The translations under genes and the position numbers were made by a program. Below, in pieces: positions 29,140 through 64,000 of a DNA stretch of 64,000 bases (position 1 is the first letter of the stretch; each line of letters opens with the position of its first letter). Source of the DNA: an uncultured Actinomycetota bacterium (GTDB taxonomy: Bacteria > Actinomycetota > Actinomycetes > Propionibacteriales > Nocardioidaceae). The stretch is taken from assembly GCA_963815595.1 (NCBI GenBank), contig CAWFHA010000007.1, positions 1,079,121 through 1,143,120 of the forward strand. Reading direction: 5' to 3'. Below the pieces are notes generated by a model. The model was not told where the DNA came from. It did no database searches and was given only the letters and a program-made list of their open reading frames with translations.

Positions 29140-29940
29140 CAGGGGGAAGACGAAGAACGTGACCGCCACGAGGCCGACGACGACGATCACCGTGCGCAGG
29201 GCCACCGGGGGGAGGCGACGCCCGACCGTGGCGCCGAGCTGGCCGCCGATGACCGAGCCGACGGCGATCAGCCCGGCCGCCGGCCAGTTCACCACCGTGT
29301 CGGCGCCGGGCAGGCCGGGGATCTCCACCAGGTCGAGCACGATGAACGCCAGGGCGGCGATGGCGTTGACGATGAGGGCGAGCACGTTCTTGGTGGCGTT
29401 GTGCCGCTGCATCGAGTCGACCACCCCGATGCCCAGGATCGCCATCAGCAGCACACCCTGCGCGGCGCCGAAGTAGCCGCCGTACACGCCGGCCAGCAGC
29501 ACCGCGGGCCACACCCACCACACGCCGTGCTCGGCCACCCCACCCCGGCTCTCGGCCCGGGCAGCGACCCGGCGCTGGATCCGGGGACCCAGCACCACGA
29601 GCGCGCAGCCCAGCAGGATCAGCACCGGGACGATCGCGTCGAACGCCGCCGAGGGCAGCATCAGCAGGAGCAGCGCGCCCCCGATGCCGCCGACCAGCGA
29701 GGCCGCGCCCAACCGGACCAGGCGGCTGCGCTGGCCCCGGAGCTCGCGTCGGTAGCCGATCGCGCCGGACAGCGACCCGGGGGCGAGGCCGATGGTGTTG
29801 GAGATGTTCGCCGTCACCGGGGGGACGCCGAACGCGAGGAGGGTCGGGAACGTGACCAACGTCCCCGACCCCACCACGGTGTTGATGGTTCCGGCCGCGA
29901 CCCCGGCGAGCAGGATCGCGGTGATCTCACCGAGACTCAC
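29137..29940 (-). CDS. TauE/SafE-family membrane protein
   Basis: INTVVGSGTLVTFP, GVYGGYFGAAQG; multi-TM. Confidence 0.9.
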   Translation of the reverse strand: MSLGEITAILLAGVAAGTINTVVGSGTLVTFPTLLAFGVPPVTANISNTIGLAPGSLSGAIGYRRELRGQRSRLVRLGAASLVGGIGGALLLLMLPSAAFDAIVPVLILLGCALVVLGPRIQRRVAARAESRGGVAEHGVWWVWPAVLLAGVYGGYFGAAQGVLLMAILGIGVVDSMQRHNATKNVLALIVNAIAALAFIVLDLVEIPGLPGADTVVNWPAAGLIAVGSVIGGQLGATVGRRLPPVALRTVIVVVGLVAVTFFVFPL

Positions 29941-35026: not shown

Positions 35027-36010
35027 ATGCCAATGGGAGCCGACGGTCGCAGCGGGAGCGGCGGTGCGGGCGACCTGCTGGTCATCGGCGGCGCCGAGGA
35101 CAAGCTGGGCAAGCGCACCGTGCTGGGCGAGTTCGTGGCCCGGGCCGGTGGGTCCGAGGCACGGATCGCCGTCGTCCCCACCGCCTCCTCGCTGGGCCCG
35201 GAGATCGTCGAGGTCTACGAGGCCCTGTTCACCCGCCTGGGGGCGGCCGAGGTGTACGGCGTGCGCCCCGAGGACCGGGCCGCCGCGGCGGCGCCGGACC
35301 TCGTCGCCGAGCTGGACCGGGCCACCGGCATCTTCATGACCGGCGGCAACCAGCTCAAGCTGTCCACGGTGATCGCCGGCACCCCGTTCGGCGAGGCCAT
35401 CGTGCAGGCCCGGGACCGGGGCGTGACCGTGGGTGGCACGTCGGCCGGGGCCAGCATCCAGTCCTCGCACATGGTCGCCTTCGGACCCGGCGGGTCGACT
35501 CCCAAGCAGCGGATGACCCAGGTCGCCGCCGGTCTGGGGCTGGTGGAGAACTGCGTGATCGACCAGCACTTCGCCCAGCGCAACCGCTACGGACGGCTGC
35601 TGATGATCGTCGCGCAGAGCCCGCAGCTGCTGGGCATGGGCGTCGACGAGGACACGGCGGCGGTCATCTCCCGGTCCGAGGACCGGGACCTGCTGCACGT
35701 CGTCGGGCGCGGGTCGGTGACCCTGCTGGACGGCAGCCAGATGGTGACCAACGCGCACGAGGCCCGTGAGCGCCGGCCGATCCTGGCCTCGGGGGTGGTC
35801 CTGCACTCCCTGCCCGCGGGCGCCGGCTTCGACCTCACCTCCCGCACCCTGCTGCCACCCGCGGCCGAGCCCGACCCGTCCGAGGCCGACGAGCTGGCGC
35901 TAGCCGGTCGAGACCTGCGCAAGATGGCCCGGGACATCGCCGCCGGCGACGTCTCCCCCACGGCGCTGCGGCGCCGGATCGCCCGACGCACCAGAGGAGC
36001 TGCCCAGTGA
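35027..36010 (+). CDS. cphB: Cyanophycinase
   Basis: IGGAEDK, TGGNQ, GTSAGA (Ser), IDQHF (His), DEDTA; immediately upstream of cphA. Confidence 0.9.
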   Translation: MPMGADGRSGSGGAGDLLVIGGAEDKLGKRTVLGEFVARAGGSEARIAVVPTASSLGPEIVEVYEALFTRLGAAEVYGVRPEDRAAAAAPDLVAELDRATGIFMTGGNQLKLSTVIAGTPFGEAIVQARDRGVTVGGTSAGASIQSSHMVAFGPGGSTPKQRMTQVAAGLGLVENCVIDQHFAQRNRYGRLLMIVAQSPQLLGMGVDEDTAAVISRSEDRDLLHVVGRGSVTLLDGSQMVTNAHEARERRPILASGVVLHSLPAGAGFDLTSRTLLPPAAEPDPSEADELALAGRDLRKMARDIAAGDVSPTALRRRIARRTRGAAQ

Positions 36011-38817
36011 CCAGGAGCGCCGACGAACGCACCGCCGTGAGCTCGGGCGGACGGCCCACCGCCGACCTCGCCATCGTCGAGACGCGGGTCTACCGCGGCG
36101 CCAACGTGTGGTCCTACGACAAGGCGATCCACCTCGTCGTCGACCTCGGGGTGCTGGAGGACTTCCCCACCAACACGATCCCGGGCTTCACCGACCACCT
36201 CGTCGACGCGCTGCCCGGGCTGCGCGAGCACACCTGCTCCCGGGGACGACGCGGCGGCTTCCTCGAGCGGCTGCACGAGGGCACCTGGCTGGGCCACGTC
36301 GCCGAGCACGTCGCCCTCGCACTGCAGCAGGTCGTCGGCCACGACATCCGGCGGGGCAAGACCCGGCAGGTCAAGGGCGAGCGCGGCCGCTACAACGTCA
36401 TCTACGGCTACGTCGACGAGCAGGTGGGGCTCGAGGCCGGCCGGCTCGCCGTCCGGCTGGTCAACCACCTCGTGGAGGCCGACCCGGACTTCGACTTCAC
36501 CGACGAGCTCGACGCGTTCATCCTGCGGGCCCAGCGCACCGCCTTCGGGCCCTCCACCCAGGCGATCCTCGACGAGGCGGTCTCGCGCGACATCCCGTGG
36601 ATCCGGCTGAACAAGCACTCGCTCGTCCAGCTCGGCCAGGGCGTCCACGCCAAGCGCATCCGGGCCACGATGACGTCGGAGACCAGCTCCATCGCCGTCG
36701 ACATCGCCTCCGACAAGGACCTGACCACCCGGCTGCTCGGCGCCGCGGGCCTGCCCGTGCCGCGCCAGGAGTCGGTGCGCACCGCCGAGCAGGCGGCCAC
36801 CGTCGCCCGCAGGATCGGGTTCCCGGTGGTGGTCAAGCCGCTCGACGGCAACCACGGGCGCGGGGTGTGCCTCGACCTCCAGGACGAGGACGAGGTCCGG
36901 GAGGCGTTCGCCGTCGCCGAGGAGCAGTCGCGCCGCGGCTGGGTGATCGTGGAGTCGTTCATCACCGGCAAGGACTACCGGTGCCTGATCATCGACGGGC
37001 GCCTCGCCGCCATCGCCGAACGCGTGCCCGCCCACGTCATCGGCGACGGCACCTCGACGGTGCGTGCCCTGGTCGACCTGACCAACGCCGACCCACGACG
37101 CGGTGTGGGCCACGAGAAGATCCTCACCCGGATCAAGGCCGACGCCGCCGCCGAGGCGGTGCTCGCCGACCAGGGTCACACCCTGGACTCCGTGCCCGCC
37201 GAGGGCGAGATGGTCAAGCTGGCGCTGACCGGCAACATGTCGACCGGCGGCATCTCGATCGACCGCACCTTCGAGGCCCACCCGGAGAACGCGGAGATCG
37301 CCGAGGAGGCAGCCCGCATGGTCGGGTTGGACATCGCGGGCATCGACTTCATCTGCCCCGACATCACCCAGCCGGTCCGCGAGACCGGCGGCGCGATCTG
37401 CGAGGTCAACGCGGCCCCGGGCTTCCGGATGCACACCCACCCCACGATCGGCGAGCCGCAGTTCATCGCCAAGCCGGTCGTGGACATGCTGTTCCCACCC
37501 GGGGCTCCCAGCCGGATCCCGATCGTCGCCGTGACCGGCACCAACGGCAAGACCACGACCAGCCGGATGATCAGCCACATCTTCAAGGGCATGGGGCGCA
37601 AGGTCGGCATGACCTCCACCGACGGCGTGGTCATCGACGAGCGGCTGCTGATCCGGGCCGACGCCTCGGGCCCGCGCAGCGCGCGCATGGTCCTGCAGAA
37701 CCCACGGGTGGACTTCGCGGTCTTCGAGGTGGCGCGCGGCGGCATCCTGCGCGAGGGACTCGGCTACGAGCGCAACGACGTCGCCGTCGTGCTCAACGTC
37801 CAGCCCGACCACCTGGGGCTGCGCGGCATCGACACCGTCGAGCAGCTCGCGAACGTCAAGGCGGTGCTGGTCGAGGCCGTGCCGCGGGACGGGCACGCGG
37901 TGCTGAACGCCGACGACCCCCTGGTCCGGGAGATGCGGCGCCGCTGCTCGGGGCAGGTCGTGTGGTTCTCCATGGAGGAGCCGGGCACCGAGGCCCGTGA
38001 CCTGATCGACGCCCACTGCCGCCGTGGAGGCAAGGCGCTGGTCCTGCAGTCCACGGAGCGCGGCGAGATGATCGTCGTGCGGCACGGGGCCCGGGACATG
38101 CAGCTGGCGTTCACCCACCTGCTGCCCGCGACCTTCTCGGGCCGTGCGCGGATGAACGTGCAGAACGCGCTGGCCTCCGCGGCGGCGGCGTTCGCTGTCG
38201 GCGCGCCGCTGCACGACATCCGCCAGGGCCTGCGGACGTTCTCCACCAGCTACTACCTCTCCCCCGGCCGGCTCAACGAGCTCGAGGTCAACGGCGTCAC
38301 CGTCATCGTCGACTACTGCCACAACGCTCCGGGCATGCGAGCGCTCGGCGACTTCGTCGACCGGGTCGGCGAGACCCTCGACTCGGGCTACGACCTCGGC
38401 AAGCCCTCCCGGATCGGCGTCATCGCCACGGCCGGCGACCGGCGTGACGAGGACATGCGGGAGCTCGGCGAGGTCGCGGCGCGCCACTTCGACGTGGTCA
38501 TCGTGCGCGAGGACCAGGCCCTGCGGCGCCGCGAGCGCGGCGTCACCGCCGCCCTGGTCGCCGAGGGGGTCCGGGAGGCGATGGACGACGGCGCGCGGTG
38601 CAAGCAGCTGGAGGTGATCGTCGACGAGATCGAGGCCGTCCACCACGCGATGAGCCGGGCCAACCGTGGCGACCTCGTCGTGGTCTGCGTCGACCAGCAC
38701 CCGCTGGTGATGACCGAGCTGGAGAACTGGTCGCCGATGGCCCAGGCCGGGGCGTCGTACGCCGGCGACGACACGCACGTCGCCGACCCGGACTACACCC
38801 CGCCGCCGGAGTCCTGA
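36007..38817 (+). CDS. cphA: Cyanophycin synthetase CphA1 (N + ATP-grasp + Mur-ligase domains)
   Basis: Cx19HxxEH in N domain; VVKPLDGNHGRGV, EVNAAPGFRMH; GTNGKTT; DYCHN; GTGA overlap with cphB. Confidence 0.95.
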   Translation: MTRSADERTAVSSGGRPTADLAIVETRVYRGANVWSYDKAIHLVVDLGVLEDFPTNTIPGFTDHLVDALPGLREHTCSRGRRGGFLERLHEGTWLGHVAEHVALALQQVVGHDIRRGKTRQVKGERGRYNVIYGYVDEQVGLEAGRLAVRLVNHLVEADPDFDFTDELDAFILRAQRTAFGPSTQAILDEAVSRDIPWIRLNKHSLVQLGQGVHAKRIRATMTSETSSIAVDIASDKDLTTRLLGAAGLPVPRQESVRTAEQAATVARRIGFPVVVKPLDGNHGRGVCLDLQDEDEVREAFAVAEEQSRRGWVIVESFITGKDYRCLIIDGRLAAIAERVPAHVIGDGTSTVRALVDLTNADPRRGVGHEKILTRIKADAAAEAVLADQGHTLDSVPAEGEMVKLALTGNMSTGGISIDRTFEAHPENAEIAEEAARMVGLDIAGIDFICPDITQPVRETGGAICEVNAAPGFRMHTHPTIGEPQFIAKPVVDMLFPPGAPSRIPIVAVTGTNGKTTTSRMISHIFKGMGRKVGMTSTDGVVIDERLLIRADASGPRSARMVLQNPRVDFAVFEVARGGILREGLGYERNDVAVVLNVQPDHLGLRGIDTVEQLANVKAVLVEAVPRDGHAVLNADDPLVREMRRRCSGQVVWFSMEEPGTEARDLIDAHCRRGGKALVLQSTERGEMIVVRHGARDMQLAFTHLLPATFSGRARMNVQNALASAAAAFAVGAPLHDIRQGLRTFSTSYYLSPGRLNELEVNGVTVIVDYCHNAPGMRALGDFVDRVGETLDSGYDLGKPSRIGVIATAGDRRDEDMRELGEVAARHFDVVIVREDQALRRRERGVTAALVAEGVREAMDDGARCKQLEVIVDEIEAVHHAMSRANRGDLVVVCVDQHPLVMTELENWSPMAQAGASYAGDDTHVADPDYTPPPES

Positions 38818-39701: not shown

Positions 39702-41167
39702 GCGGGATGGCTCTCCTCGATGGGGGGACCGCCAGTCTCGCGCAGTCGCCCGACGTCGCGCAGGCCGACCCACGAGACCACGCCTCCCAGCGCGAGCATC
39801 GCGGCTGAGAGCAGCAGCGCTCGCTCGTAACCGGCGGTGAGCAGGCCGGGGTCGCTGTAGTCGGTCCCGGTGAGCCCGACCGCGGCAGGAAGTGCCGCGA
39901 CGGCCAGCAGGCTCCCCGTGCGGGCGACCGCGTTGTTGACCCCGCTCGCCACCCCGGCATGGTTGCCGGGGACCGCGGCGAGGACGGCCACCGTCAGCGG
40001 GGAGACCAGGGTGACCAGCCCCAGCGCGAACACGACGATCCCCGGGAACACCCCGGTCCAGTACGTCGTGTCCCGGTCGACCCCGCTGAGCAGGAAGACC
40101 CCGACGGCGCACACGATCGGCCCCACCGTCATCGGCACCCGCGGCCCCGTGCGGGCGAACAGCACCGAGAGCCGCGAGGAGAGGAGGACCATGATCACCG
40201 AGACCGGCACGGTGGCCACGCCGGCGGCGGTGGCGCCGTACCCGGTGGAGACCTGGAGCTGGAGCACCAGGAAGAACAGCACGGCGCCGAGGGCGCCGTA
40301 GACGAGCAGCGTCATCAGGTTCGCGGCGCTGAACACGCGGGAGGACCACATCGACAGCGGCGCCATGGCGCCCGGTCGCCTCTCGAACCACACGAACGCG
40401 GCTGCCGCCGCGACCGCCAGCACCAGCCCGACGACCAGGACTCCCGTGGGCAGCTCGCGCCACGAGGTGAGCAGGTAGGTGGTGGCGCCGAGCACCACGA
40501 TGCCCGACAGCGCGCCCCGGTAGTCGAAGCGCCGGGGAGCCTCGGCGTCGAGCGACTCCGGGATCCGGAGACCGAGCAGCAGCACCAGGGCGCACAGCGG
40601 CAGGTTGATCGCGAAGACCCAGCGCCACCCCGCGTTCTCGACCAGGAACCCGCCCAGGAACGGCCCGATCGCCACCGCGATGCCGGAGGCGCCTGCCCAG
40701 GTGCCGATGGCGGCCGGCCGATCCACCCGGCGGAAGGTCCCCTGGATCAGGGCCAGGGCCCCCGGGGTGAGCAGCGCCGCCGCCACCCCTTGGACGACCC
40801 GGAACAGAACCAGCTGGAACGGCGACTGGGCGAACGCGCACAGGGCACTGGCCGCGGCGAAGCCGGCGATCCCCATCAGGTAGACGCGCCGTCGCCCGAA
40901 GCGGTCGCCCAAGGCGCCCCCCACCAGGATCAGCGCCGCCAGGCTGACCAGGTAGCCGTTGGAGATCCACTGCAGCTCGACCAGCGAGGCGTCGAGGTCG
41001 GCACCGATGCGGCGCAGGGCGATGTTGACCACCGTGCCGTCGAGGATCGCGATGCTCGACCCGAGGGTCACCGTGAACAGGGTGAGCCTTCCGAGGGCCG
41101 AACGGCGGTCGAGCAGGCCGGACTCGTCCTCCCTGGGTTGACCGGGCTCAGGCGAGGGCTGCGGCAC
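39698..41167 (-). CDS. MFS transporter (DHA2-like, 14 TM)
   Basis: LDGTVVNIAL, GGALGDRFGRRR motif A, GPFLGGFL. Confidence 0.9.
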   Translation of the reverse strand: MPQPSPEPGQPREDESGLLDRRSALGRLTLFTVTLGSSIAILDGTVVNIALRRIGADLDASLVELQWISNGYLVSLAALILVGGALGDRFGRRRVYLMGIAGFAAASALCAFAQSPFQLVLFRVVQGVAAALLTPGALALIQGTFRRVDRPAAIGTWAGASGIAVAIGPFLGGFLVENAGWRWVFAINLPLCALVLLLGLRIPESLDAEAPRRFDYRGALSGIVVLGATTYLLTSWRELPTGVLVVGLVLAVAAAAAFVWFERRPGAMAPLSMWSSRVFSAANLMTLLVYGALGAVLFFLVLQLQVSTGYGATAAGVATVPVSVIMVLLSSRLSVLFARTGPRVPMTVGPIVCAVGVFLLSGVDRDTTYWTGVFPGIVVFALGLVTLVSPLTVAVLAAVPGNHAGVASGVNNAVARTGSLLAVAALPAAVGLTGTDYSDPGLLTAGYERALLLSAAMLALGGVVSWVGLRDVGRLRETGGPPIEESHPA

Positions 41168-42848
41168 GACGTACCTTCGCCCGGAGCACCTCCGGTGTGT
41201 CCGCCGTGGCTCCCTGTCCGGTGAGCCAGTCGTAGACCTGCTGCCGCTCCGCGTGGCACATCAGCCCCACCACGTCGCCAGGGGTCGCCTGCTCGACCAG
41301 GGCCTGGAGCGAAGCGAGCTCGGTGGGGTGGGCCGGGAGGTCCGTGACGCCCACCCGGGCCGCTCCGGCACGTAGCAGCGCCTCGAGCTCGGCGGTGGTG
41401 CGGCCGCGCAGGTAGTGCTCCTTGTGACCGATCACCACGACGTCGGCGTCCCGACCCGCGATCTCGCCGAGCATCTCCAGCAGGTCGTCCTGACGGTCGC
41501 CGACCGCACCCAGCCCGAGCAGCAGGCGGCAGCCGGGTGCGCGCAGGCCGCGCATGACCTCGATCATCGCCTCCAGCCCCACCTCGTTGTGCGCGAGGTC
41601 CATCACCACCGAGACCTCGCCGAGGCTGAAGATGTTCATCCGGCCGGGGTTGTGCTCGGCGTCGGGCAGGAAGGAGCGCAGCCCCGCGGCGACGTGCTCC
41701 CGGCCGATGCCGGCCGCCAGGGCCGCAGACGTGGCGGCCAGGGCGTTCTCGACGTTGAACCGGGAGAGCCCGCTCAACGTCATCGGCACGTCGACGACCT
41801 CCAGCACCGGGTCGACGCTGCCCCCGTCGAGCACGGTGATCCAGCCGTCGATGACCGTGGTCGCCCGGCCCCGGGCGTTGAGCACCTCGCGCAGTGCCGG
41901 CGAGTCGGGGTAGCGGGAGAAGACCCACGGGCGCGCTGGCGTGGTCAGCCGCATGGCGAAGACCCGCGGGTCGTCGGCGTTGAGCACCGCCCAGCCCGAC
42001 TTCTTGGTGATCCTCGGCACGACGCCCTTGACCTCGGCGAGCTGGTCCACGGTGTCGATGCCGTGCAGGCCCAGGTGGTCGGCGGTCACGTTGGTGACCA
42101 CGGAGACGTCGTTGCTGACCAGGCCGATCCCCTTGAGCAGGATCCCCCCGCGAGCGGTCTCGGTCACCGCGAAGTCCACCTCCCGGTGGGCGAGGACGCG
42201 TCCGGCGCCGGAGGGACCGGAGTAGTCACCGGCCTCCACCAGCACGCCGTCGACGTAGATGCCGTCGGTGTTGGACCAGCCGACCAGGTGACCGGCCTCC
42301 CGGGCGATGTGGGCGATCATCCGCGACGTGGTGGTCTTGCCGTTGGTACCGGTCACGGCCACCACGGGCACCCGCGGCCTGATCGTGGTGGGCCCCGGGC
42401 CGCGCTCGGCGGCCCGCACGTGCTCGGCCGCGCGCTCCACCAGGACGCCCACCTCCTGCGAGCCCAGCCCGTCGACCACCGAGGCCACCGCCTCGCCCAG
42501 GGCGCGCGCCCGGTTGCGGTCGCGCCACGGGTAGGCGACCACGATCCGCTGGGACTGGGAGGTCGACCGCACCCGGACCGCGAGGCGGGTGGTCCCCGAC
42601 TCCGCGGCGATCCGCCGCACCAGCCGGGTCACGAGGCGAGCCAGGGAACGCTGCCGGAAGCCGCTCATCGGGGCGTCGGCCCGCAACGAGCGCAGCCCGA
42701 GCCGATCCGCGAGTCGGCGTACGTCGGTCTCGGGCGCCTCGGCGAGCGAGGTCACGTCGAGGGTGAGCTTGATCGCGGCCCGGGGGAAGTACAGGTTGGG
42801 TCCCTCGAGGACCCTCAGCTCGACCAGGGCGGGGTCCCGGTCAGCCAC
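41148..42848 (-). CDS. CphA-like protein: degenerate N domain + Mur-ligase domain, no ATP-grasp
   Basis: ELRVLEGPNLY resembles the CphA N-terminus; GTNGKTTT, ETARGGIL, NVTADHLG, DLAHN; 566 aa versus 936 aa for CphA1. Confidence 0.8.
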   Translation of the reverse strand: MADRDPALVELRVLEGPNLYFPRAAIKLTLDVTSLAEAPETDVRRLADRLGLRSLRADAPMSGFRQRSLARLVTRLVRRIAAESGTTRLAVRVRSTSQSQRIVVAYPWRDRNRARALGEAVASVVDGLGSQEVGVLVERAAEHVRAAERGPGPTTIRPRVPVVAVTGTNGKTTTSRMIAHIAREAGHLVGWSNTDGIYVDGVLVEAGDYSGPSGAGRVLAHREVDFAVTETARGGILLKGIGLVSNDVSVVTNVTADHLGLHGIDTVDQLAEVKGVVPRITKKSGWAVLNADDPRVFAMRLTTPARPWVFSRYPDSPALREVLNARGRATTVIDGWITVLDGGSVDPVLEVVDVPMTLSGLSRFNVENALAATSAALAAGIGREHVAAGLRSFLPDAEHNPGRMNIFSLGEVSVVMDLAHNEVGLEAMIEVMRGLRAPGCRLLLGLGAVGDRQDDLLEMLGEIAGRDADVVVIGHKEHYLRGRTTAELEALLRAGAARVGVTDLPAHPTELASLQALVEQATPGDVVGLMCHAERQQVYDWLTGQGATADTPEVLRAKVRRAAALA

Positions 42849-54875: not shown

Positions 54876-56452
54876 GCGGCCTCGAGGTGTTCGTGCGCGC
54901 GTTCCTGCGCCGGGACCGGTGGCTGGTGCTGTGGTTCACGGTGGGGACCACGGTCCTGTACTGGTCGCAGGCGGTCAGCGTCGACGGGCTCTACGCCACC
55001 CGAGCGGCCTTCGAGGAGGCGGCGGCCCTCATGGGGAGCAACCCGGCCTTCGTCGCCATGGCCGGTCCCGCACGGGCCCTCGACACGACCGGTGGCCAGG
55101 TGGCGTGGCAGGCCACGGCCTTCGGCGCCGTCGTGGTGGGCCTGATGAGCATGTTCCTCGTGGGCCGGCACACCCGCGCCGAGGAGGAGTCCGGCCGCGA
55201 CGAGCTGCTGCGGGCCGGCGCCGTGTCGCGGCGTACCCCCATGACCGCCGCGGTGGTCGTGGTGGTCCTCGCCAACCTGGTCGTCGGCGCTGCCGTGACG
55301 GCCAGCCTGGTGCTCTACGGCCTCGCGGCCGAGGGCGCCCTGGTCCTCGGTGCCGGGCTCGCCGGCTGCGGACTGGCGTTCGGGGCGGTCGCGCTGCTGG
55401 CGGCCCAGGTCACCGGCAGCAACCGGGCGTCGTACGGGATCACCGGGGCGTGCCTGGGGCTCGCGTACGGTCTGCGCGCGGTCGGCGACGTCTCCGGTGG
55501 CGGCCTGTCCTGGCTCTCGCCGATCGGCTGGTACCAGGCCATGCGCGCCTACTCCGGCGAGCGCTGGAGTCCGCTGCTCCTGCTCCTCCTCCTGTCCGTC
55601 CTGGCGACCCTCGCGGCGTACGCCGCCTTCGGCCGGCGCGACTTCGGGGCCGGGCTGTGGCCGACCCGGCCGGGACCGGAACGGGCCTCGCTCGCACTGG
55701 GACACCCGCTCGGCCTGTGGTGGCGGCTCCAGCGGGGATCGGTGGCCGGCTGGGTGGCGGGGATGCTGCTCGCCGGTGCCTCCTACGGGTCGATCGGTGA
55801 CCAGGTCCGCAGTCTCCTCGGCGACGGCGGGCTGTCGCAGGAGCTGTTCACCGGCGGGGCCGGCGGTGACCTCGTCGACGGCTTCTACGCCACCGCGGCG
55901 GCCATGCTGGCGCTGATCGCGTCGGGGTTCTCGGTCTCCTCGGCGCTGCGACCCCGCACGGAGGAGGACGAGGGACGTCTCGAGGCGCTGGCCGGCACGG
56001 CGATGCCGCGCTCGCGCTGGTGGCTCACCCAGGTGCTCCTCACCGTGGTCGGCACCCTCGGCGTGCTCGTCGCGGCGGGAGCAGGCATGGCACTCGGCTT
56101 CGGGCTCACCACCGGCGGGTGGAGCCGCGCCGGGGACCTGCTCCTGGCCTTGCTCGTGCTGGCCCCCGGCGTCCTCGTGCTGAGCGGACTGGCGCGCGTG
56201 CTGGTCGGTGCCGTCCCCCGGTGGGCGTCCTTCGCCTGGCTCGGCGTGCTCTTCTGCGTGGTGGTGCTCCTCTTCGGCTCCGCGCTCCGCTTCCCCGGCT
56301 GGGTCGTCGACCTCTCCCCGTTCACGCACCTGGGTCGCTATCCGGCCGAGCCGGTGCCGTGGGCCGGGGTCGTGCTGGTGCTGCTCGCCGCAGCCGCGCT
56401 CAGTGCGGCGGGATGGGCGGGCTTCCGCCGCCGGGACCTGCTGACCCGCTAG
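54872..56452 (+). CDS. ABC-2 exporter permease (about 526 aa, TnrB3/NarB-like architecture)
   Basis: Duplicated TM halves with [12 protein letters not shown] and [12 protein letters not shown]; family assignment tentative. Confidence 0.8.
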
Positions 56453-56453
56453 C

Positions 56454-57083
56454 TCAAGGGCTGGTGGCCGAGCCAGTCGTCGGCGTGGGCTGGGCGTCGA
56501 TGCTCTCCAGGTCCTGCGGGGAGTAGCAGACCCTGGTCAGCGCCTGGAACGGCTTCACGTACCCCTCGCCCATCCGCGCCAGGGTCGAGCTGTAGGTGCG
56601 CATGGCGCGGGCCTGCGCCGGGCGGCGGTCGCTGTCGATGCCGGCCAGCACGACCTCCACCCGACCTCCGAACCCGGCCAAGGTGTCGGCGGCCTCGCCG
56701 AGGCTGCGCACGCAGTCCGGCGGGAAGTCTCGAGCGGCCAGCGTGTTGAGCTGCGCCGCCAGCGCCTGCAGGGACTGTTGCAGGGGGTCCAGCAGGCCGT
56801 GGAAGCAGGCGCGCCACGCAGGGTAGCCCTTCGACCGCGTGCGGTTGCACTTCGCGAGCTGGGCGGGCGCCTGGGCGCGGACCATCGAGGACTGGACCGG
56901 AGCGGCGGCCTCGTTGATGGCGGTGGAGTCCGACTCGGCGAAGAAGACGGCCTCCGGGGTCGATGCGGGTGAGGCGCTCCGAGCGGACGTGCGCGGCTCC
57001 GCCGACCCGGCGTCGGACCCGCACCCCGTCGCGGACAGCAGGCCGAGGACGAGACAGCCGGCCATCGTGACGAGTCGGTACAT
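56454..57083 (-). CDS. Hypothetical lipoprotein
   Basis: MYRLVTMAGCLVLGLLSATG-C lipobox, Ser/Ala/Pro linker, helical body with 4 Cys. Confidence 0.65.
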   Translation of the reverse strand: MYRLVTMAGCLVLGLLSATGCGSDAGSAEPRTSARSASPASTPEAVFFAESDSTAINEAAAPVQSSMVRAQAPAQLAKCNRTRSKGYPAWRACFHGLLDPLQQSLQALAAQLNTLAARDFPPDCVRSLGEAADTLAGFGGRVEVVLAGIDSDRRPAQARAMRTYSSTLARMGEGYVKPFQALTRVCYSPQDLESIDAQPTPTTGSATSP

Positions 57084-57259
57084 GTGCGAAAGGTGGGGTC
57101 CGGTGCGGGTCGACGTCAAGCCCGGAGGCCGGACCACGCTCATCGGCCCGGGGTCGTCTAGAACAGTGCCCGGCCGGCCTGACCGGACTGGCTAGCATCC
57201 GGAGGGCACAGGCGTCGATCGGACGCGGTTCGAGCAGCGGACGTGTCAGGGGGCCGAGC

Positions 57260-57874
57260 ATGCAGCGGCACGTGTGGCACGTCGAGGCGCCGCCGGGCCG
57301 CGAGGCCGGTCCCGGTGCGGGCGTCCGACCGCTGTCGTCCGGACCCGGCGCGGCGTCCGACGCCGCCCTGCTCCAGGGCTGCCGGGACGGGGAGGCCGAG
57401 GCGTGGGACGCCCTGGTCGGCCGTTACCAGGGACTCGTGTTCGGCGTGGCGCGACATGCGGGTGTCTCCCGCGACGAGGCCGCCGACATCACCCAGACGA
57501 CGTTCGTCGCGCTGCTCGACACGATCGACACCCTGCGTGCCGACGAGCGGCTCGCGGGCTGGCTGATCACCGTCGCCCGACGCGCGGCGTGGCAGGCACG
57601 GCGCCAGCACGAGCGCACCCAGGTGGTCGTACCGGCGCAGGAGGTCACGGACCCGATCGAGGACTGGGAGCAGGTCGCCTGGATGCACGAGTGTCTCCAG
57701 AGCCTGGCGGCTCCGTGCCGCGAGCTGCTGACCGCGCTCTACCTCGATCCGAGGACCCCGTCGTACAGCGAGGTGGCCGCCCGCACCCGGCGAGCGATCG
57801 GCACCATCGGGCCGATGCGCGCCCGGTGCCTGGAACGGTTGCGGGCCATCATGACCGACGGTGCCGAGCCTTGA
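57260..57874 (+). CDS. ECF sigma factor
   Basis: SDAALL..C..G...AWDALVGRY, LAGWLITVARR, SYSEVA, GTIGPMRARCLERLR. Confidence 0.92.
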   Translation: MQRHVWHVEAPPGREAGPGAGVRPLSSGPGAASDAALLQGCRDGEAEAWDALVGRYQGLVFGVARHAGVSRDEAADITQTTFVALLDTIDTLRADERLAGWLITVARRAAWQARRQHERTQVVVPAQEVTDPIEDWEQVAWMHECLQSLAAPCRELLTALYLDPRTPSYSEVAARTRRAIGTIGPMRARCLERLRAIMTDGAEP

Positions 57875-58521
57875 GGCCGCAGGACGACCCGCGCCCTGAC
57901 CTGCGTCGGCTGATCGACTGGCTCGACGGACGGCTCTCTCCGGCCGACGCGGATCAGGTGGCGCGTCGGGTGGCCGATCCCGACCCGCTCACCGCGGCGA
58001 CGCTGAGCTGGTTGCGAGGGTTCCGCACCATGGCGGAGTCGAGCTCGGGCCGGGACGTGCCGCCGCGGGTGCGCCAGGACCTGCGCCGGCACTTCGCGAC
58101 CTGGAGCCGTGAGCGGGCGACCGGCTCATCGTCGGCGACCAGGCTCACGGCGCGGCTGGTCTTCGACAGCCGCCTCGACCTGGCACCCGCGGGAGTGCGT
58201 GGCACCGTCGACGACGACACCTGGCACCTCGCCTACACCAGCGACGACGCCGACGTCGTGCTGGACCTGCGCCGGGTCGCGCGCCAGCGCGTGTGCGTCG
58301 ACGGACAGGTCCTGCTCGCCGACGAGGGCGGCGGAGCTCCGGTGTTCACCGCGGTCCTCACCGCCGGCGAGGAGCCGGTCGAATCGGCGCCGGCCGACGA
58401 GCTCGGCCGCTTCCGCCTGCCCGCTGTCCCCGAACGCCACGCGCAGCTGGTGGTCGGCAACGGCGAGCTCGAGCTGACCGTGCACCTGGACCTGGACCCG
58501 GCCCGGGGCGAGGCTCCGTGA
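57871..58521 (+). CDS. Putative soluble anti-sigma factor (ASD-like N-terminus + beta-sandwich C-terminus)
   Basis: TTGA overlap with sigma; LIDWLDGRLSPADADQVARRV; ARLVFDS..AGVRG; ADELGRFRL; no TM or HxxxCxxC. Confidence 0.65.
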   Translation: MRPQDDPRPDLRRLIDWLDGRLSPADADQVARRVADPDPLTAATLSWLRGFRTMAESSSGRDVPPRVRQDLRRHFATWSRERATGSSSATRLTARLVFDSRLDLAPAGVRGTVDDDTWHLAYTSDDADVVLDLRRVARQRVCVDGQVLLADEGGGAPVFTAVLTAGEEPVESAPADELGRFRLPAVPERHAQLVVGNGELELTVHLDLDPARGEAP

Positions 58522-61297
58522 GCTCGGAGCCGCTGGAGGCAGCCGCAGCCGACGAGGTGTCGGAGGACGTCGCGGACGAGGCCGAGCTCGACCGCCTGCT
58601 CCTCCGCGCGACCGAGCTCGTCCACGACGACCCCGCCGCCGCCGAGGAGCTGTGCCGGCGCTGCGACAGCGCCGCCGACCATCTCGGCCTGCCGGCGCTC
58701 AGCGCCCGGGCCCGCTACCTGCGTGCCCGGGTGCTGACCGAGCGCGGCGAGCTCGCACCACGGACTCGACGCTGATCGAGGACGCTCGCCGCCTGTGGTG
58801 GGAGGCGGGTGCACGCGTGCCGGCACTGCGCACGTCGCTGGGCCGGATGCAGATCCTCGACGACCTGGGACGGCACCGGGAGGCAGTCGTGGTGGGTGAG
58901 GAGACGCTGGCTGCTCTGGGCGCGCTGCCACGGGAGAGCGACGACGTCGAGCTCCGCAACTGGCTGGAGGCGGCGGTGCAGGAGAACCTCGGCGTGGCCT
59001 GGGGCTTCCTCGGCGAGCACGAGCACGCCCTGGACGCCTACCACGCCGCCGAGTCCGTCTACCGGTCCCTGGACCTGGAGGAGGAGACCGGGCGCCCGCT
59101 GGCCAACCGGGGCATCGAGCTGGTGGCGCTGGGCCGGGGCCGCGAGGCGCTGGAGGTCCTGCTCGCGGCCGGGGAGGTCTTCGACCGGTCCGGTGACCGG
59201 CTGTGGGCCGCCAAGTGCTCCGGTCACGCTGCCCAGGCCCACCAGCAGCTCGGAGAGCTGCTACCGGCCCTGCGCCAGGTGGCCCGGGCCAGGCTCGTCC
59301 TCGACGAGCTCGGGGCCGAGGCGGAGTCCGCACGCCTCCAGCTCACCGAGGCGGACCTCTACCTGGCGATCGGGCTCGTGCCGGAGGCGCGCACCGCGGC
59401 GACCTCGGCCGCGACCCGCACGGCTGTCGCCGGGATGCGGCACGACGCCGCGTGCGCACGGTTCGTGGTCGCCCTGGCCGACCTGGACGTCGGCGACCTC
59501 GCCCGGGCGGACCGGGCACTGCACACGGCCGGCGAGAGGTTCGACGAGGTGGGCGACCGGCACCAGCGCGCCCGGGTCGACCTGGCCCTGGCCGAGCTCC
59601 GCGCCCGCGAGGGACGCGCCGAGGAGGCGGTCACCCTGGCCGCCGGTGCGGCGCGGGCCCTGCGCTCGGGGTCGTGGCTGGTGCCGCTGGCCGCCGCCGA
59701 GCTGTGGCTGGCCGACGCCTCCGACGACCCCGAGGCGGTCTCGGAGCACCTCGACGAGGTGGAGCGGCTGCTCGAGCGGGTGCGCCTGCCGCAGGTCCGC
59801 GTGCGGTACCTGGTCCGCCGCGCCCGCCAGCGACGGGCGAGCGGGGCGACCGAGGAGGCCGAGGCGCTCCTGCGGGAGGCCGTCGCGGAGGTGGACGACA
59901 CCCGGGCGTCCCTCGGCGACGAGGGGTTGCGCCGGGCCTTCTTCGGGCGGCGCCTGGCCCCCCACGACGAGCTCGTGGACCTGCTGGTCGATCGGGGCGC
60001 ACCCGGTGACCACGCGGCAGCGCTGCTGGTCAGTGACCGCGGCAAGGCCCGCACCCTGGTCGACCTGGTGGAGGGAACGATCGGACCCCGCGCACCGGCG
60101 GCACCGGATGCCCTGCTGGCCGACCTGCACATCCTCTACGCAGAGCTGCTGTCGGTCACCGACCCCGTGCGCCAGCGCTCGCTGCGCCGCCGGGCCGACG
60201 ACCTCGAGAGACGAGTGAGCACCGAGCGGGTGCGGCGGGCCTCGACCGAGCAAGCGCCGCCCGTCGGCCGACCGATCGCCCCGACGACCTGGCCGGACCG
60301 CTTGCTGAGCTACCACACCGCGGGCGCCGACCTGGTCGTGTTCGTCTCGCTGGCGGGGAGCACCGAGGCGATCCGGCTCCGCGGGGCCGTGCCGCTCGTG
60401 CACGAGCAGCTGACCCGGCTCGAGGCTCAGTGGAGCCGGTTCCGGATGGGGGCGAGCCTGCGCCAGCGCTCCGGCGCCACCTTGCTGGCCACCACGCAGG
60501 AGATCCTCCAGCGGCTGCACGACCTGCTCGTCGAACCTGTCGCAGGCCTGCTCCGCGGCGGTGACGTCGGGGCAGCGCTGGTCGTCGCACCGTCACGGGA
60601 GGTGCTCGACGTGCCCTTCCACGCGCTGCACGACGGCAGCACCAGCCTCCTCGAGCGTTGGTCGGTCACGGTGGCACCGGCCGCGGCCGGGCTGCGTGCG
60701 CCGGCACCGGTCCCGTCCGCCCGTGCCCTCGTGCTCGCCGTCGACGACGACCGAGCCCCGTCCCTGGCGCGGGAGGCGCGTGCGGTGTCAGCGGCGCTGC
60801 CCCACGCCCGGGTGCTGGTCGGCGAGGCGGCCACGAGCGACGCGCTCGTGGCCGGCGCACACGACCTCGACATCCTGCACGTCGCCTGCCACGGCCTCTA
60901 CCGCTCGGGCAACCCACTGTTCTCCTCGCTGCGCCTCGCAGACCGCTCGCTCACCGCTGCCGAGGTCCTCGAGCTGGACCTGAGCGGCACCGTGGTCGTG
61001 CTCAGCGCGTGCGAGACCGGGCGGCAGGGCGGAGCCACCGCCGAGCCGGTCGGGCTGGCCTGGGCCTTCCTGGCGGCGGGGGCACGGGGGGTCGTGGTGA
61101 GCCACTGGCTGGTCGACGACGACGCCACCGCCGATCTGATGTCGGAGTTCCACGCTCATCTGGCCTCGGGCAACGACCCCGCGACGGCGCTGCGGCGGGC
61201 GCAGCTCGCCGTGGCCTCGACCAGGCCGCACCCCTACCACTGGGCGGCATTCAGCTACGTCGCGGCACCCGCTGCGACCCGATCGGAAGTGAGATGA
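58518..61297 (+). CDS. TPR-repeat CHAT (caspase-like) protease, frameshifted between 58755 and 58772
   Basis: TPR-like helices; LHVACHG (His) and VVLSACETG (Cys); N-terminal frame stops at 58775 while the main frame runs to 61297. Confidence 0.88.
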
Positions 61298-62538
61298 CGA
61301 TGCGTGCGATGCCACGAGTGTGGGTGCTCGGCCTGGTGGCCGGGGCGCTGCTGGTCCCCGGCCCTGCGGAGGCGGCGAAGTGCCCGCCGGGCAGCCTGGC
61401 CGAGGTGGTGGTCGGCATCGACCTCTCGGGACCACGCACGATCGAGCAGGTGACGTCCGGGCTGCCCGTCACCGTCGAACGTCCGCTGGTGCGGTCGCGC
61501 GGCATCTGGGAGGTGCGCTCCACCGACCCGGACTACTGCGGCACGCAGTCCGCGGCCCGCAAGCTGGCCAAGAAGATCGAGAAGGACGACGCGGTCCGGT
61601 ACGCCGAGGCGGGCTACCTCGCACAGGTGGCCGACGACCGGTTCCACGCCTGGGCCTCCGATGCCGCGAGCGAGCCGACGGCCGACGCACGTGCCTGGAC
61701 CGACCAGCCCGTGGTCGGCTCGCTCGGACTGGCTGTTGCCCACGGCCGATCCCAGGGCGCCGGGTCGGTGGTGGCGGTGCTGGACACCGGCGTCTCGCGC
61801 ACCCACCCGGCGCTGTCCGGATCTCTCCTCCCGGGGTGGGACTACGTCGATGACGACGCCTCACCCGAAGAGACCCGCAACGGCCTCGACGACGACCTCG
61901 ACGGCCTGGCCGACGAGTCGTTCGGGCACGGCACCTTCCTCAGCGGCCTGGTCCTCCTCGTCGCCCCCCGTGCACGGGTGCTGCCCATGCGAGTGCTGGA
62001 CAGCGACGGTCGCGGGAACACCTTCGTGGTCGCGCAGGCGGTCGCCGACGCCGTGACGGCGGGCGCGGACGTGATCAGCCTCAGCTTCGGCACCACCGTG
62101 AAGCCGGAGTCCACGGTGCTCGAGGACGCGTTGAAGCAGGCCAGGAAGGCGGGGGTGGTGGTGGTGGCTGCCGCGGGCAACACGGGATCCAAGACCGAGC
62201 AGTTCCCCGCAGCCAGCCACGACGTCGTGGCCGTCGGCGCGCTCTCGGCCGACGGGTCCGGGCTGGCCGCCTTCTCCGGCTCCGGAGGCTGGGTCGACGT
62301 CGCGGCGCCCGGGGAACAGGTCGCCGGCCCGGTGCCGGGTGGCGGGTACGCCTGGTGGGACGGCACGTCGGTGGCCACCCCGTTCGTCGCCGGCCAGCTG
62401 GCCTTGCTGCGCTCGCAGCGGCAGGCCGAGCACGCCGACAAGCTGGTGGAGCGTGTCGAGAAGACCGCTCGCCGTCTCGAGCCCCGGGGCCGTCCCAAGA
62501 CCGACGCCATCGACATCGTGGGCAGCCTCGGGCCCTAG
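61294..62538 (+). CDS. Secreted S8 subtilisin-like serine protease
   Basis: Signal peptide ending AEA-A; VAVLDTG (Asp), GHGT (His), AAAGN, GTSVATP (Ser); acidic DDDLDGLAD loop; ATGA overlap with CHAT. Confidence 0.93.
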   Translation: MTMRAMPRVWVLGLVAGALLVPGPAEAAKCPPGSLAEVVVGIDLSGPRTIEQVTSGLPVTVERPLVRSRGIWEVRSTDPDYCGTQSAARKLAKKIEKDDAVRYAEAGYLAQVADDRFHAWASDAASEPTADARAWTDQPVVGSLGLAVAHGRSQGAGSVVAVLDTGVSRTHPALSGSLLPGWDYVDDDASPEETRNGLDDDLDGLADESFGHGTFLSGLVLLVAPRARVLPMRVLDSDGRGNTFVVAQAVADAVTAGADVISLSFGTTVKPESTVLEDALKQARKAGVVVVAAAGNTGSKTEQFPAASHDVVAVGALSADGSGLAAFSGSGGWVDVAAPGEQVAGPVPGGGYAWWDGTSVATPFVAGQLALLRSQRQAEHADKLVERVEKTARRLEPRGRPKTDAIDIVGSLGP

Positions 62539-62789
62539 ACGGGCCTCGGGGTCGAGCGACCCGTCAGCTCGGACTAGTCCGACCGGGTGGTTCTCACGGG
62601 GGCTCTGGGATTTGTCGTGGACCGGTGCATCACCGGGTTCCCCGACGTACACCGCAGGCGCGCGTTAGCCCCTCCGACGGGGCCGTGACCAGTCTTGTCC
62701 TGCTCGCACCCGGCGACGAGCGTGAACCGCGCAAGCAGGCACGGGGGGCGGTCTCGCCCTCCGACGACGCAACAAACAGGAGAGCTGAC

Positions 62790-62972
62790 ATGTCACGTTC
62801 AGGTCTGGTCAAGGCGGTCAAGCCCGCCAAGTGTGGTGGCGGCGGGAAGTCGTCGAAGTCCTCGAAGTCCTCGAAGTCCTCGAAGTCCTCGAAGTCGAAG
62901 AAGTCGAAGAAGTCGAAGAAGTCCCACGGCCGCGGCTGCAGGTGCGGCTGTGGTGGTGGCGGCGGCTACTGA
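62790..62972 (+). CDS. 60-aa cationic Lys/Ser-repeat peptide with Cys/Gly tail
   Basis: AGGAGA RBS; MSRSGLVKAVKPAKCGGGG(KSS)5(KSK)3KSHGRGCRCGCGGGGGY. Confidence 0.75.
   Translation: MSRSGLVKAVKPAKCGGGGKSSKSSKSSKSSKSSKSKKSKKSKKSHGRGCRCGCGGGGGY
62847..62927 (+). repeat. Nine tandem 9-bp units (AAGTCSWMS) encoding KSS/KSK
   Basis: AAGTCGTCG, (AAGTCCTCG)x4, (AAGTCGAAG)x3, AAGTCCCAC. Confidence 0.9.
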
Positions 62973-62998
62973 GCCACGGAACGAGGATCATCCACCTC

Positions 62999-64000
62999 AT
63001 GGGGGGATCCACCCGCAGGCACGGAGCGGGGCCGTCGCACCGACGGTCCCGCTTCGGGCGCGTCCGCAGCACCTGCGCGGCTCCGGTGCGGCTGTGGCGC
63101 CGGCTCCTGGAGCCGGTGCGCGGGCCCCACGACCTCGTGCAGGACGCCCCGCCACTGACCCTGCGCGAGATCTTCGACCGGTTCTGGCCCGACGTGCGCC
63201 CCCTGCGTTGGTGGGTGGTGCTCAGCACGGCCCTGGGTGCCACGCTCTCGCTGATCACGCTCGTGGAGATCGCGCTGTTCAAGTACGTCGTCGACGACGT
63301 GCTCGTTCCCGCCGACCTGAGCCCGCTGATGTGGATCGGCGCCTGCTACCTGGGCCTGGCCGTGCTGTCCGGCCTGCTCTCCGGCCTCTCCTCCTATCTC
63401 TCGACCTGGCTCTCCCACACCTTCTTGGCCACGCTCCGCACGCGCGTGTTCGCCCACGTCCTCTCCCTCCCGCAGGAGGTGCACGACCGTCGCCGCCTGG
63501 GCGACTCGATGGTCCGCATCACCAGCGACTCCTCGGCGGTCGAGGGGTTCATGATCAGCACCTTCCGTTCGGGTGTGACCACCGTCCTGACAGCGGTGTT
63601 CTACCTCGGCGCGCTGTTCCTGCTCGACGTGCAGCTCGCGCTCTCCTCGTTGGTCATCGTCCCCATCTTCTGGTTCCTGGCGCAGCGCTTCGCGCGGTTG
63701 ATCAAGATCACCGCCCGTGAGCAGCGGCGCCGGGGCGGCTCGCTGTCGGCCGTCACCGAGGAGCACCTGGGCAACGCCGGCCTCGTGCAGACCTTCAACC
63801 GGCAGGCTGACGCGACCCAGCAGTTCCACAAGGAGAACCTCGGGATCCGCGCGGCCTCCCTCGCCGCGGTCCGGATCCGGGCGCTGTTCTCCCCCGTCGT
63901 GGACCTCGCCGAGCTGGTCGGGGTCCTGACCGTGATCGTGCTCGGGACCCACTCCTTGGCCAGCGGGCGACTCACCCTGGGTGGCCTGATGGCGTTCTTG
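62999..64000 (+). CDS. ABC exporter, transmembrane domain (runs off window)
   Basis: Open frame from ATG 62999: APPLTLREIFDRFWP, RRLGDSMVRITSD, EEHLGNAGLVQTFNR; absent from ORF track because no stop codon is reached. Confidence 0.85.
   Translation, partial: MGGSTRRHGAGPSHRRSRFGRVRSTCAAPVRLWRRLLEPVRGPHDLVQDAPPLTLREIFDRFWPDVRPLRWWVVLSTALGATLSLITLVEIALFKYVVDDVLVPADLSPLMWIGACYLGLAVLSGLLSGLSSYLSTWLSHTFLATLRTRVFAHVLSLPQEVHDRRRLGDSMVRITSDSSAVEGFMISTFRSGVTTVLTAVFYLGALFLLDVQLALSSLVIVPIFWFLAQRFARLIKITAREQRRRGGSLSAVTEEHLGNAGLVQTFNRQADATQQFHKENLGIRAASLAAVRIRALFSPVVDLAELVGVLTVIVLGTHSLASGRLTLGGLMAFL

Follow-up and report, generated by a model that had tools for sequence, protein, structure and literature searches.

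The 64,000-nucleotide stretch analysed here (the window; contig CAWFHA010000007.1 of assembly GCA_963815595.1, from an uncultured bacterium of the Nocardioidaceae) contains a cassette of four genes, which encode a sigma factor of the extracytoplasmic function (ECF) type, a soluble anti-sigma-like protein referred to below as protein 2, a CHAT-domain cysteine protease and a secreted subtilisin-like protease of family S8. The identity of all four products could be assigned, the active sites of both proteases are conserved, the first three proteins share the cytoplasm, and the genes keep together in bacteria of three phyla. We tentatively suggest that the CHAT protease cuts protein 2 in the cytoplasm and thereby frees the sigma factor, and that the subtilase is an output of this switch; among the explanations weighed below it is the one to which we lean, with considerable doubt. 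A preliminary description of the window had interpreted the genes as a candidate CRISPR-independent proteolytic signalling system. Our sequence analysis partly supports that interpretation, which now appears plausible and better founded, with corrections concerning the role of the subtilase, the kinship with Craspase and the novelty of the cassette.

The four-gene set and its conservation

The genes lie on the + strand between 57260 and 62538, in a window with a G+C content of about 72%:

57260..57874, + strand: ECF (group IV) sigma factor, 204 amino acids; regions sigma2 and sigma4, preceded by an N-terminal extension of some 30 poorly conserved amino acids (Sigma70_r2, TIGR02937)
57871..58521, + strand: soluble anti-sigma-like protein (protein 2), 216 amino acids (AlphaFold2 models, Foldseek, homologue motifs)
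58518..61297, + strand: TPR-like CHAT cysteine protease, 925 amino acids if read through (Pfam CHAT, His/Cys dyad)
61294..62538, + strand: secreted S8 subtilisin-like serine protease, 414 amino acids, with signal peptide, propeptide-like region and catalytic domain (Peptidase_S8)

They are linked by three 4-nt start/stop overlaps, TTGA (57871-57874), GTGA (58518-58521) and ATGA (61294-61297), all of which are present in the sequence as the preliminary description had claimed. Judged from this layout the sigma, protein 2, CHAT and S8 genes make up one operon with translational coupling. As a rule, the Actinomycetota loci described below have 4-nt overlaps at each of the three junctions, and the overlap between the sigma and protein 2 genes is found in most.

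A co-occurrence survey, proposed earlier as a check, was carried out on loci collected by a scan for a protein-2 motif with one genome per species. The 32 loci come from metagenome-assembled genomes (MAGs) of Actinomycetota and Chloroflexota and from a single isolate, Nocardioides sp. LML1-1-1.1 (L030); those closest to the window belong to MAGs of Actinomycetota. When the four window proteins were used as tblastn queries, about 25 of the 32 showed the sigma, protein 2, CHAT and S8 genes side by side, with order and strand unchanged. The other loci lie at contig ends, are decayed or have the genes permuted, as in two partial loci with the orders CHAT-sigma-protein 2-S8 (L031) and S8-sigma-protein 2 (L033). 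Clustering of the open reading frames (ORFs) of 33 loci showed that no genes but these four recur (each of them in 17-24 loci) and that the flanks differ; the next commonest neighbours were an ABC exporter (six loci), a Ser/Thr kinase (five) and a lipoprotein (four).

Profile searches also reached distant relatives of protein 2, which, where their source taxonomy is given, are acidobacterial. The order sigma-CHAT-protein 2-S8 occurs in five of seven distant loci of this acidobacterial type; one of the other two has only protein 2 and S8, and the other protein 2 alone. A search of four of these distant loci (L037-L040) showed that their sigma, CHAT and S8 proteins can be aligned with those of the window, the CHAT proteins of L037 and L038 nearly from end to end. 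The survey thus found the four genes together across three phyla and in at least three gene orders. With about 25 of the 32 protein-2 loci and five of the seven distant loci sharing all four genes, the arrangement is far beyond chance, and its persistence through permutation of gene order, in three phyla and between unrelated flanks indicates that the set is a functional unit. A word-indexed search with protein 2 returned 49 relatives, all of 205-222 amino acids, and a HMMER profile search returned 3,850 cluster representatives at E <= 0.001 (1,729 at E <= 1e-10). The protein-2 family is therefore large, and with this many representatives in at least three phyla the cassette would be a common one.

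Some loci have features of their own. In the Nocardioides isolate protein 2 is truncated and the S8 gene is missing, and the CHAT genes of L012, L029 and L031 are split over several frames; these four loci, like L018 (see below), hold decayed or partial copies. An Opp/Dpp-type peptide importer, consisting of two BPD_transp_1 permeases and an SBP_bac_5 binding protein, directly precedes the sigma gene on the same strand in three distant loci (L037, 1-3324; L038, 1-3400; L039, 1-3644). The distant locus L043 is flanked instead by TonB-dependent receptor-like proteins with CarboxypepD_reg domains.

The products of the four genes

The first gene product belongs to the ECF (group IV) sigma-70 factors. 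It matches Pfam Sigma70_r2 (3.6e-12) and, over residues 47-196 with sigma4 included, the TIGR02937 sigma70-ECF model with 59 bits, above the cut-off of 42.9 bits; its best solved relatives are AlgU and RpoE. A G-rich Shine-Dalgarno sequence precedes the ATG at 57260, and the same is seen in homologues. Homologue alignments begin at residues 26-34, so little of the N-terminal extension is conserved. For this gene and the other three, the identities that had been proposed (ECF sigma, anti-sigma-like protein, CHAT, secreted S8) hold.

Protein 2 of the window has no hydrophobic segment and no Pfam or NCBIfam match at normal thresholds. The gene call on record (P0001, 183 amino acids) starts at the GTG at 57970 and would drop the conserved first helix with its DWLxGRL motif; because the homologues align from residue 1 and the sigma gene overlaps by 4 nt at this point, the correct start is the TTG at 57871. 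Two AlphaFold2 models (pLDDT, the confidence score of the program, 82.9 and 82.4) consist of four N-terminal helices and a beta-sandwich, and the protein can be divided as follows:

residues about 10-85: putative four-helix anti-sigma domain without zinc ligands
residues about 90-207: CarboxypepD_reg-like beta-sandwich
residues 98-110, within the beta-sandwich: invariant FDS...AGVRG loop

The C-terminal domain is CarboxypepD_reg/transthyretin-like: Pfam CarboxypepD_reg matches 28 of 58 members of the protein-2 family (best 8.8e-6), and the sole solved sequence match for the beta-sandwich is a NOMO repeat. A Foldseek search with the whole model gave only weak beta-sandwich matches and was uninformative on the N-terminal domain, which was therefore modelled and searched alone. 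In this model the helices span residues 11-18, 24-35, 39-57 and 65-85 (pLDDT 82), and among its 21 matches in the PDB at E <= 10 there were 12 anti-sigma domains, including those of RslA, RsiW, RskA and MucA.

The kinship of the N-terminal domain became clearer from the rest of the family. Pfam zf-HC2 gives weak matches in seven of the 58 members, the window protein scoring only 0.075. The motif H-x3-4-C-x2-C stands at the expected place in 92 of 95 distant homologues; as H-x3-C-x2-C it is lacking in the window protein, and of 191 close members 190 are without it, a single one having kept it. Its presence in the distant homologues indicates that the zinc motif was lost secondarily in the close clade. 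Two distant homologues are named 'anti-sigma factor RsiW' by JGI, and one distant homologue has a match to PF13490 (zf-HC2). The window motif L-x-DWLDGRL-x8-V...WLRGF is what we take to be the zinc-less counterpart of the usual ...DGEL...HL..C..C... pattern of zinc-containing anti-sigma (ZAS) factors, and like such factors protein 2 is encoded beside, and co-translated with, an ECF sigma. From these features we predict that protein 2 is soluble and descends from ZAS-type anti-sigma factors, that its anti-sigma part has lost the zinc, and that this part is fused to a CarboxypepD_reg beta-sandwich, the family evidence for this descent being stronger than the fold matches. The anti-sigma character that had been suggested for the protein encoded at 57871 is thus better founded than when it was read from the N-terminus of one protein.

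The most conserved feature of the family lies outside the helices. It is a loop, LVFDS-x5-7-AGVR(G/S), in which D99, S100 and R110 are invariant across the 58 diverse members; the FDS...AGVR motif persists in the distant clade, and in the AlphaFold2 model the loop falls in a surface stretch of low pLDDT. Such an invariant, protein-specific loop suggests that protein 2 has a protein partner.

The third gene matches Pfam CHAT (PF12770) at 3.2e-53, and its product is a clan CD, caspase-like protein with a catalytic His-Cys dyad. Both codons of the dyad, reported earlier as intact, are present: His791 (CAC, 60890) in VACHG and Cys831 (TGC, 61010) in LSACETG. The dyad is kept in 25 of 27 other copies, that is in every intact one, the two exceptions being frameshifted or truncated. 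The name TPR-CHAT given in the preliminary description holds for its CHAT half; the tetratricopeptide repeats (TPR) are sub-threshold in the window protein (TPR_12 3.1e-4, TPR_1 0.013), and distant homologues give clean TPR_12 matches.

In the window two surplus single bases, 58757 and 58769, which lie 12 nt apart, interrupt the CHAT frame. The preliminary description had implied that the frame needs repair, and three observations agree that the frameshift is real. Third-position GC follows the frame from 58518 to about 58770 and then that of the long ORF 58652-61297, the switch lying near 58750-58780. Both bases show as extra in an alignment with the orthologue in L001. Finally, a contig of the soil metagenome run X2 (491 nt, about 98% identical) is without bases 58757 and 58769 and reads ERGELAHGLALIEDARRLWW in frame; it is the sole near-identical public contig over the site and represents a slightly different strain, with 8 substitutions in the 491 nt. 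Intact CHAT homologues have 912-968 amino acids. The two insertions may have arisen as a consensus error of the assembly, or the gene may have been inactivated very recently; should the assembly be correct, the switch would be locked in this strain.

The product of the fourth gene is a subtilase, with a match to Pfam Peptidase_S8 (PF00082) at 1.5e-42 and an active site composed of D164, H212 and S359 together with the oxyanion residue N296. The triad is conserved in 26 of 27 other copies, L029 being degenerate at the Ser motif, and an N-terminal hydrophobic signal sequence is present in the window protein and in most homologues, so that the earlier view of a secreted S8 protease with an intact triad is borne out by both the residues and the signal peptide. 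The closest solved relatives are AK.1 protease and thermitase. We considered whether the enzyme is a mycosin and rejected this; it scores 166 bits against a cut-off of 279 bits and has no C-terminal hydrophobic anchor. A role as the cutter of the anti-sigma was rejected as well, because the signal peptide places the subtilase in a different compartment from the cytoplasmic pair of sigma and protein 2, on which it cannot act. For the same reason the subtilase has to be taken out of any cleavage step in the cytoplasm.

Possible mechanisms

The sigma factor, protein 2 and the CHAT protein all are without a signal peptide or transmembrane segment, hence all three are cytoplasmic and cleavage of protein 2 by CHAT is topologically possible. 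In the mechanism we favour the N-terminal helices of protein 2 would keep the sigma inactive. The helical-repeat arm of CHAT would sense a cytoplasmic cue, or bind the beta-sandwich of protein 2, and the activated protease would cut protein 2. The best candidate site is the FDS...AGVR(G/S) loop, where the cut would probably fall after the Arg, as in several other clan-CD proteases. Degradation of the leftover anti-sigma fragment would then release the sigma, which would transcribe its own operon and other targets. The secreted subtilase would be an output of the switch and not one of its steps, and the module of small peptide, ABC exporter and kinase genes found next to the cassette in the sub-clade of the window is probably another output there. 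The combination of lost zinc ligands and a retained, active-looking CHAT favours CHAT as a regulator over CHAT as a mere target. Since the zinc motif is kept in only one of the 191 close members and CHAT is nevertheless retained, thiol oxidation cannot be the input in this clade.

Several results count against this mechanism. Binding, cleavage, the cleavage site, the signal and autoregulation are all predicted from sequence, and the proposed site is a guess from conservation. Taken one by one, the anti-sigma matches found by Foldseek are weak (E 2-7, TM 0.43-0.47), and profile searches of the PDB with full-length and N-terminal alignments of protein 2 found no anti-sigma factor. No shared ECF-type promoter was found in 29 regions upstream of sigma genes when dyads of 5-mers and 4-mers with spacers of 14-19 nt were enumerated, the best dyads occurring in six sequences and no more often than in shuffled controls; nor did a scan of the window from 56300 to 64000 for consensus promoters and terminators find anything. 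In view of these results autoregulation by the sigma is an assumption. Two loci do without CHAT: L018 has the sigma, protein 2 and S8 genes, and L041 only protein 2 and S8. The synteny would fit equally well if CHAT and S8 were targets of the sigma instead of its regulators, two roles that, as Casas-Pastor et al. (PMC7826278) point out, synteny does not separate in such contexts. A review of non-canonical ECF sigma factors (PMC8999054) proposes the opposite polarity for the ECF54 group, with proteases degrading the sigma.

The simplest alternative is that sigma and anti-sigma are the regulator and the two proteases merely their regulon, both being outputs that serve, for example, programmed cell death, development or extracellular protein scavenging; protein 2 would then sense through its beta-sandwich or, in the zinc-containing relatives, through thiol oxidation. 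We regard this as unlikely, if well worth keeping in mind: ECF sigma genes commonly adjoin their targets (PMC7826278), the complete ZAS motif kept by the distant homologues is of a type that in other anti-sigma factors is sensitive to redox state, S8 is plainly an effector that is exported, and L018 and L041 have kept protein 2 and S8 without CHAT. If CHAT and S8 were no more than regulon members, the cassette would be an ordinary ECF operon. Such an operon would leave protein 2 without an evident input in the actinobacterial clade, which has no zinc ligands but an intact CHAT dyad; it also sits poorly with the constant place of CHAT beside sigma and protein 2 through three gene orders and three phyla, and with the invariant loop, which suggests a protein partner. 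The reverse polarity, in which CHAT with protein 2 as an adaptor would degrade the sigma and keep the system off, appears improbable. It could draw on the suggestion that ECF54 may be held inactive via proteolysis by the products of its carboxypeptidase-, subtilase- and CHAT-domain neighbours (PMC8999054), on the cleavage of PCc-sigma by the type III-B PCaspase (bioRxiv 10.1101/2023.06.23.546230) and on the N-terminal extension of the sigma, which could be a degron. That suggestion presumed that there is no anti-sigma, whereas protein 2 now resembles one; the extension is poorly conserved, and it is protein 2, not the sigma, that carries the best-conserved unstructured motif of the cassette.

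The remaining two alternatives concern the signal. Receptors with TPRs that bind imported peptides, and subtilases that mature such peptides, are established in Firmicutes. A circuit of this type would refine the mechanism proposed above: a peptide matured by S8 would be imported and bound by the TPR-like arm of CHAT, as in the RRNPP receptors, and CHAT would then cut the anti-sigma. The Opp/Dpp-type importer directly preceding three of the five complete distant loci on the same strand is in line with this, as are the small peptide gene and ABC exporter that adjoin the cassette in six actinobacterial loci, the window included. We still consider the idea rather improbable, as its support is all circumstantial, the importer is found neither in the window nor at most loci, and the small-peptide module is present in only about one fifth of them. 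Taken to its full extent, as a widespread CRISPR-independent device in which CHAT is the signal-activated protease for the soluble CarboxypepD_reg protein, taken as the anti-sigma missing from this ECF group, and the helical-repeat arm of CHAT reads an imported, subtilase-matured peptide, the proposal is equally speculative; if true, Actinomycetota, Chloroflexota and Acidobacteriota would possess a peptide- or quorum-type sensing circuit whose output is proteolytic and transcriptional. A CRISPR-independent module for phage defence or abortive infection, in which infection would trigger CHAT and the sigma would turn on defence genes, is in our judgement the most improbable of all. It would be analogous to Csx29/Csx30/CASP-sigma (PMC10028731) and DdvA/DdvS (PMC11506125), and in one locus, L003, a PIN/MazE pair and a gene of a WYL-helicase lie close by. 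PADLOC gave no match for the sigma, protein 2 or CHAT, the neighbours in the window are genes of biotin synthesis, ABC transporters and housekeeping genes, the flanks vary between loci and are not defence islands, and a secreted protease, the constant partner, would be an untypical effector for defence. As the preliminary description had stated, there are no cas genes in the window: no CRISPR-like tandem array was found, the ten largest ORFs are housekeeping genes, and among the 33 clustered loci there is no conserved cas-like neighbour.

Related systems and neighbouring genes

The description that fits the cassette most directly is that of ECF54, an actinobacterial ECF group which Huang et al. 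are said to have described in 2015 and which Casas-Pastor et al. treated in 2021. The likeness, established from gene context and host and not from a group model, consists of an actinobacterial ECF sigma accompanied by a CarboxypepD_reg protein, a CHAT protein and a subtilase, with no classical membrane anti-sigma. In the literature ECF54 is actinobacterial and without a clear regulator (PMC7826278), and its conserved context has carboxypeptidase-, subtilase- and CHAT-domain neighbours and no recognised anti-sigma, control by proteolysis having been proposed (PMC8999054, section 3.3). The novelty of the cassette was consequently overrated in the preliminary description. A literature search found no paper testing such a cassette. 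Some differences from the published group were seen: the neighbouring 4Fe-4S protein named in PMC7826278 was not seen here, the CarboxypepD_reg protein carries a putative degenerate ZAS domain where no anti-sigma was recognised, and the module reaches Chloroflexota and acidobacterial-type loci with permuted gene order. Our analysis is new in assigning the CarboxypepD_reg protein to the anti-sigma factors, in finding the invariant loop, in extending the module to these other groups with permuted order, and in describing the accessory peptide-related neighbours. The ECF group gains by this a candidate anti-sigma and a candidate cleavage loop, and a set of four proteins is defined for reconstitution. 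Confirmation of the mechanism would provide a regulatory mechanism for an orphan ECF group and, in CHAT, a cytoplasmic stand-alone protease with a defined natural substrate.

The nearest mechanistic relative is the DdvA/DdvS pair of Myxococcus xanthus, a closer analogue than Craspase. DdvA is a ZAS anti-sigma fused via a membrane helix to a periplasmic TPR-CHAT, and its autoproteolysis has been proposed, not shown (PMC11506125). In both systems an ECF sigma is, or would be, controlled by a ZAS-type domain coupled to a TPR-CHAT with a His/Cys dyad. DdvA is a single transmembrane polypeptide and regulates a CBASS/CRISPR island (PMC11506125), whereas in the cassette anti-sigma and CHAT are separate soluble cytoplasmic proteins, a CarboxypepD_reg domain is present, and S8 is a constant fourth partner. 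The DdvA layout of ZAS domain, transmembrane helix and periplasmic TPR-CHAT in one polypeptide is therefore not found here, and a search of the PDB with the CHAT protein gave no sequence match to DdvA.

In Craspase, the type III-E system of Cas7-11, Csx29, Csx30, Csx31 and CASP-sigma, Csx29 cleaves Csx30 and thereby relieves CASP-sigma (PMC10028731). A TPR-CHAT protease that cleaves the inhibitor of an ECF-like sigma is also the logic of the mechanism favoured here, and the preliminary description had seen in the cassette a stand-alone version of Craspase. By descent this does not hold. The Csx29 model NF041237 scores 45.2 bits on the window CHAT against a cut-off of 300, and only on the CHAT core; Csx29 chains of the PDB match it over residues 724-830 only (107 residues, E about 8e-7). 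Protein 2 is of ZAS lineage and shows no sign of a relationship with Csx30, with which it was never compared directly. The likeness is an analogy: similarity to Csx29 extends to the generic CHAT core and no further, and in a window without Cas7-11, crRNA or a CRISPR array the trigger cannot be a target RNA.

Other systems share parts of the same logic. In the type III-B systems CalpL/CalpT/CalpS and SAVED-CHAT/PCaspase/PCc-sigma a signal-activated protease acts on an anti-sigma or sigma of the same cluster; CalpT is cut by CalpL, as cited in bioRxiv 10.1101/2023.06.23.546230, and the PCaspase system described there also has a Ser/Thr kinase neighbour, as do some of our loci. These type III-B systems are activated by cyclic oligoadenylates through SAVED, in contrast to the cassette, which has no SAVED domain, cyclase or CRISPR link. 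With RseA/DegS/RseP and RsiW the cassette would share the freeing of a sigma by anti-sigma cleavage, and the N-terminal domain is probably of the same fold class (the weak Foldseek matches to RsiW, RslA, RskA and MucA); RseA and RsiW are membrane-spanning and are cleaved first by a site-1 protease in the periplasm and by a site-2 protease within the membrane, while here all proteins but the subtilase are cytoplasmic and a cysteine protease of clan CD is the candidate for the cut. Sigmas released by proteases have recently become known from CRISPR-linked immunity (Craspase, CalpL, PCaspase) and from DdvA/DdvS, and the cassette would show the same logic without CRISPR.

On both sides of the cassette there are further features, some of them shared with its closest relatives:

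56454..57143, - strand (divergent): lipoprotein-like gene, 229 amino acids, with an LSATGC lipobox and a hydrophobic N-terminus; at the same position in L001, L002 and L005
62570..62762, + strand: conserved non-coding leader ahead of the small peptide gene, with blocks invariant in the window, L001, L002 and L005
62790..62972, + strand: gene of a 60-amino-acid Lys/Ser-repeat peptide with Cys/Gly-rich ends, preceded by a strong AGGAG Shine-Dalgarno sequence; orthologues in L001, L002, L005, L024 and L025
62999..64000, + strand: ABC exporter of the type with permease and ATPase fused, incomplete because the window ends here (Pfam ABC_membrane, 1.2e-37); full 620-amino-acid homologue in L001

The lipoprotein-like gene has no family match and is conserved in the closest relatives only, which makes it no more than a possible member of the cassette. 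Between it and the sigma gene an intergenic block, GGTCGTCTAGAACAG (57152-57166), is conserved in the window, L001, L002 and L005.

Downstream of the subtilase gene about 250 nt (62539-62789) are non-coding. Within this leader 62570-62581 form a perfect palindrome of 12 bp, CGGACTAGTCCG. It is followed by two blocks, ACACCGCAGGCGCGCGTTAG at 62649-62668 and ACCAGTCTTGTCCT at 62688-62701, and by a G/C hairpin at 62740-62762, immediately ahead of the ribosome-binding site of the small peptide gene. The blocks are invariant in the four loci although the neighbouring proteins are only 50-80% identical. A search of 62539-62789 found no Rfam family, and there is no sigma-70 consensus match; it is possible that the leader is an operator, a promoter or a 5' untranslated region.

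The small peptide has no Pfam or NCBIfam match. Its family (44-60 amino acids; example MSRSGLVKAVKPAKCGGGGKSSKSSKSSKSSKSSKSKKSKKSKKSHGRGCRCGCGGGGGY) is characterized by a run of Cys and Gly at the N-terminus, followed by 5-8 repeats of Lys-Ser(-Ser) and, at the C-terminal end, G-C-x-C(-G-C); the orthologous genes lie at 12898-13080 in L001 and at about 13029-13190 in L002. The gene always stands directly before the ABC exporter and is found only in loci which have both the exporter and the kinase. The Ser/Thr kinase (275-279 amino acids), which scores about equally with the LanL kinase domain and PknB, follows the exporter in L001, L002 and L005, and in L024 and L025 the exporter and kinase pair is upstream and divergent. 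The peptide may be modified and exported, or it may serve as a substrate of a kinase.

Elsewhere in the window there is ordinary chromosomal context with genes of KatG (11841-14081), a PAS histidine kinase (22023-23588) and a catalase (26415-28055). It also encodes a cyanophycin synthetase of 936 amino acids (36007-38817, + strand) and, nearby, a second Mur-ligase-like protein (41148-42848, - strand). A tandem repeat at 30345-30526, with a period of 66 nt (33-nt sub-period), 2.8 copies and 69% matches, lies inside the - strand ORF 29937-31064.

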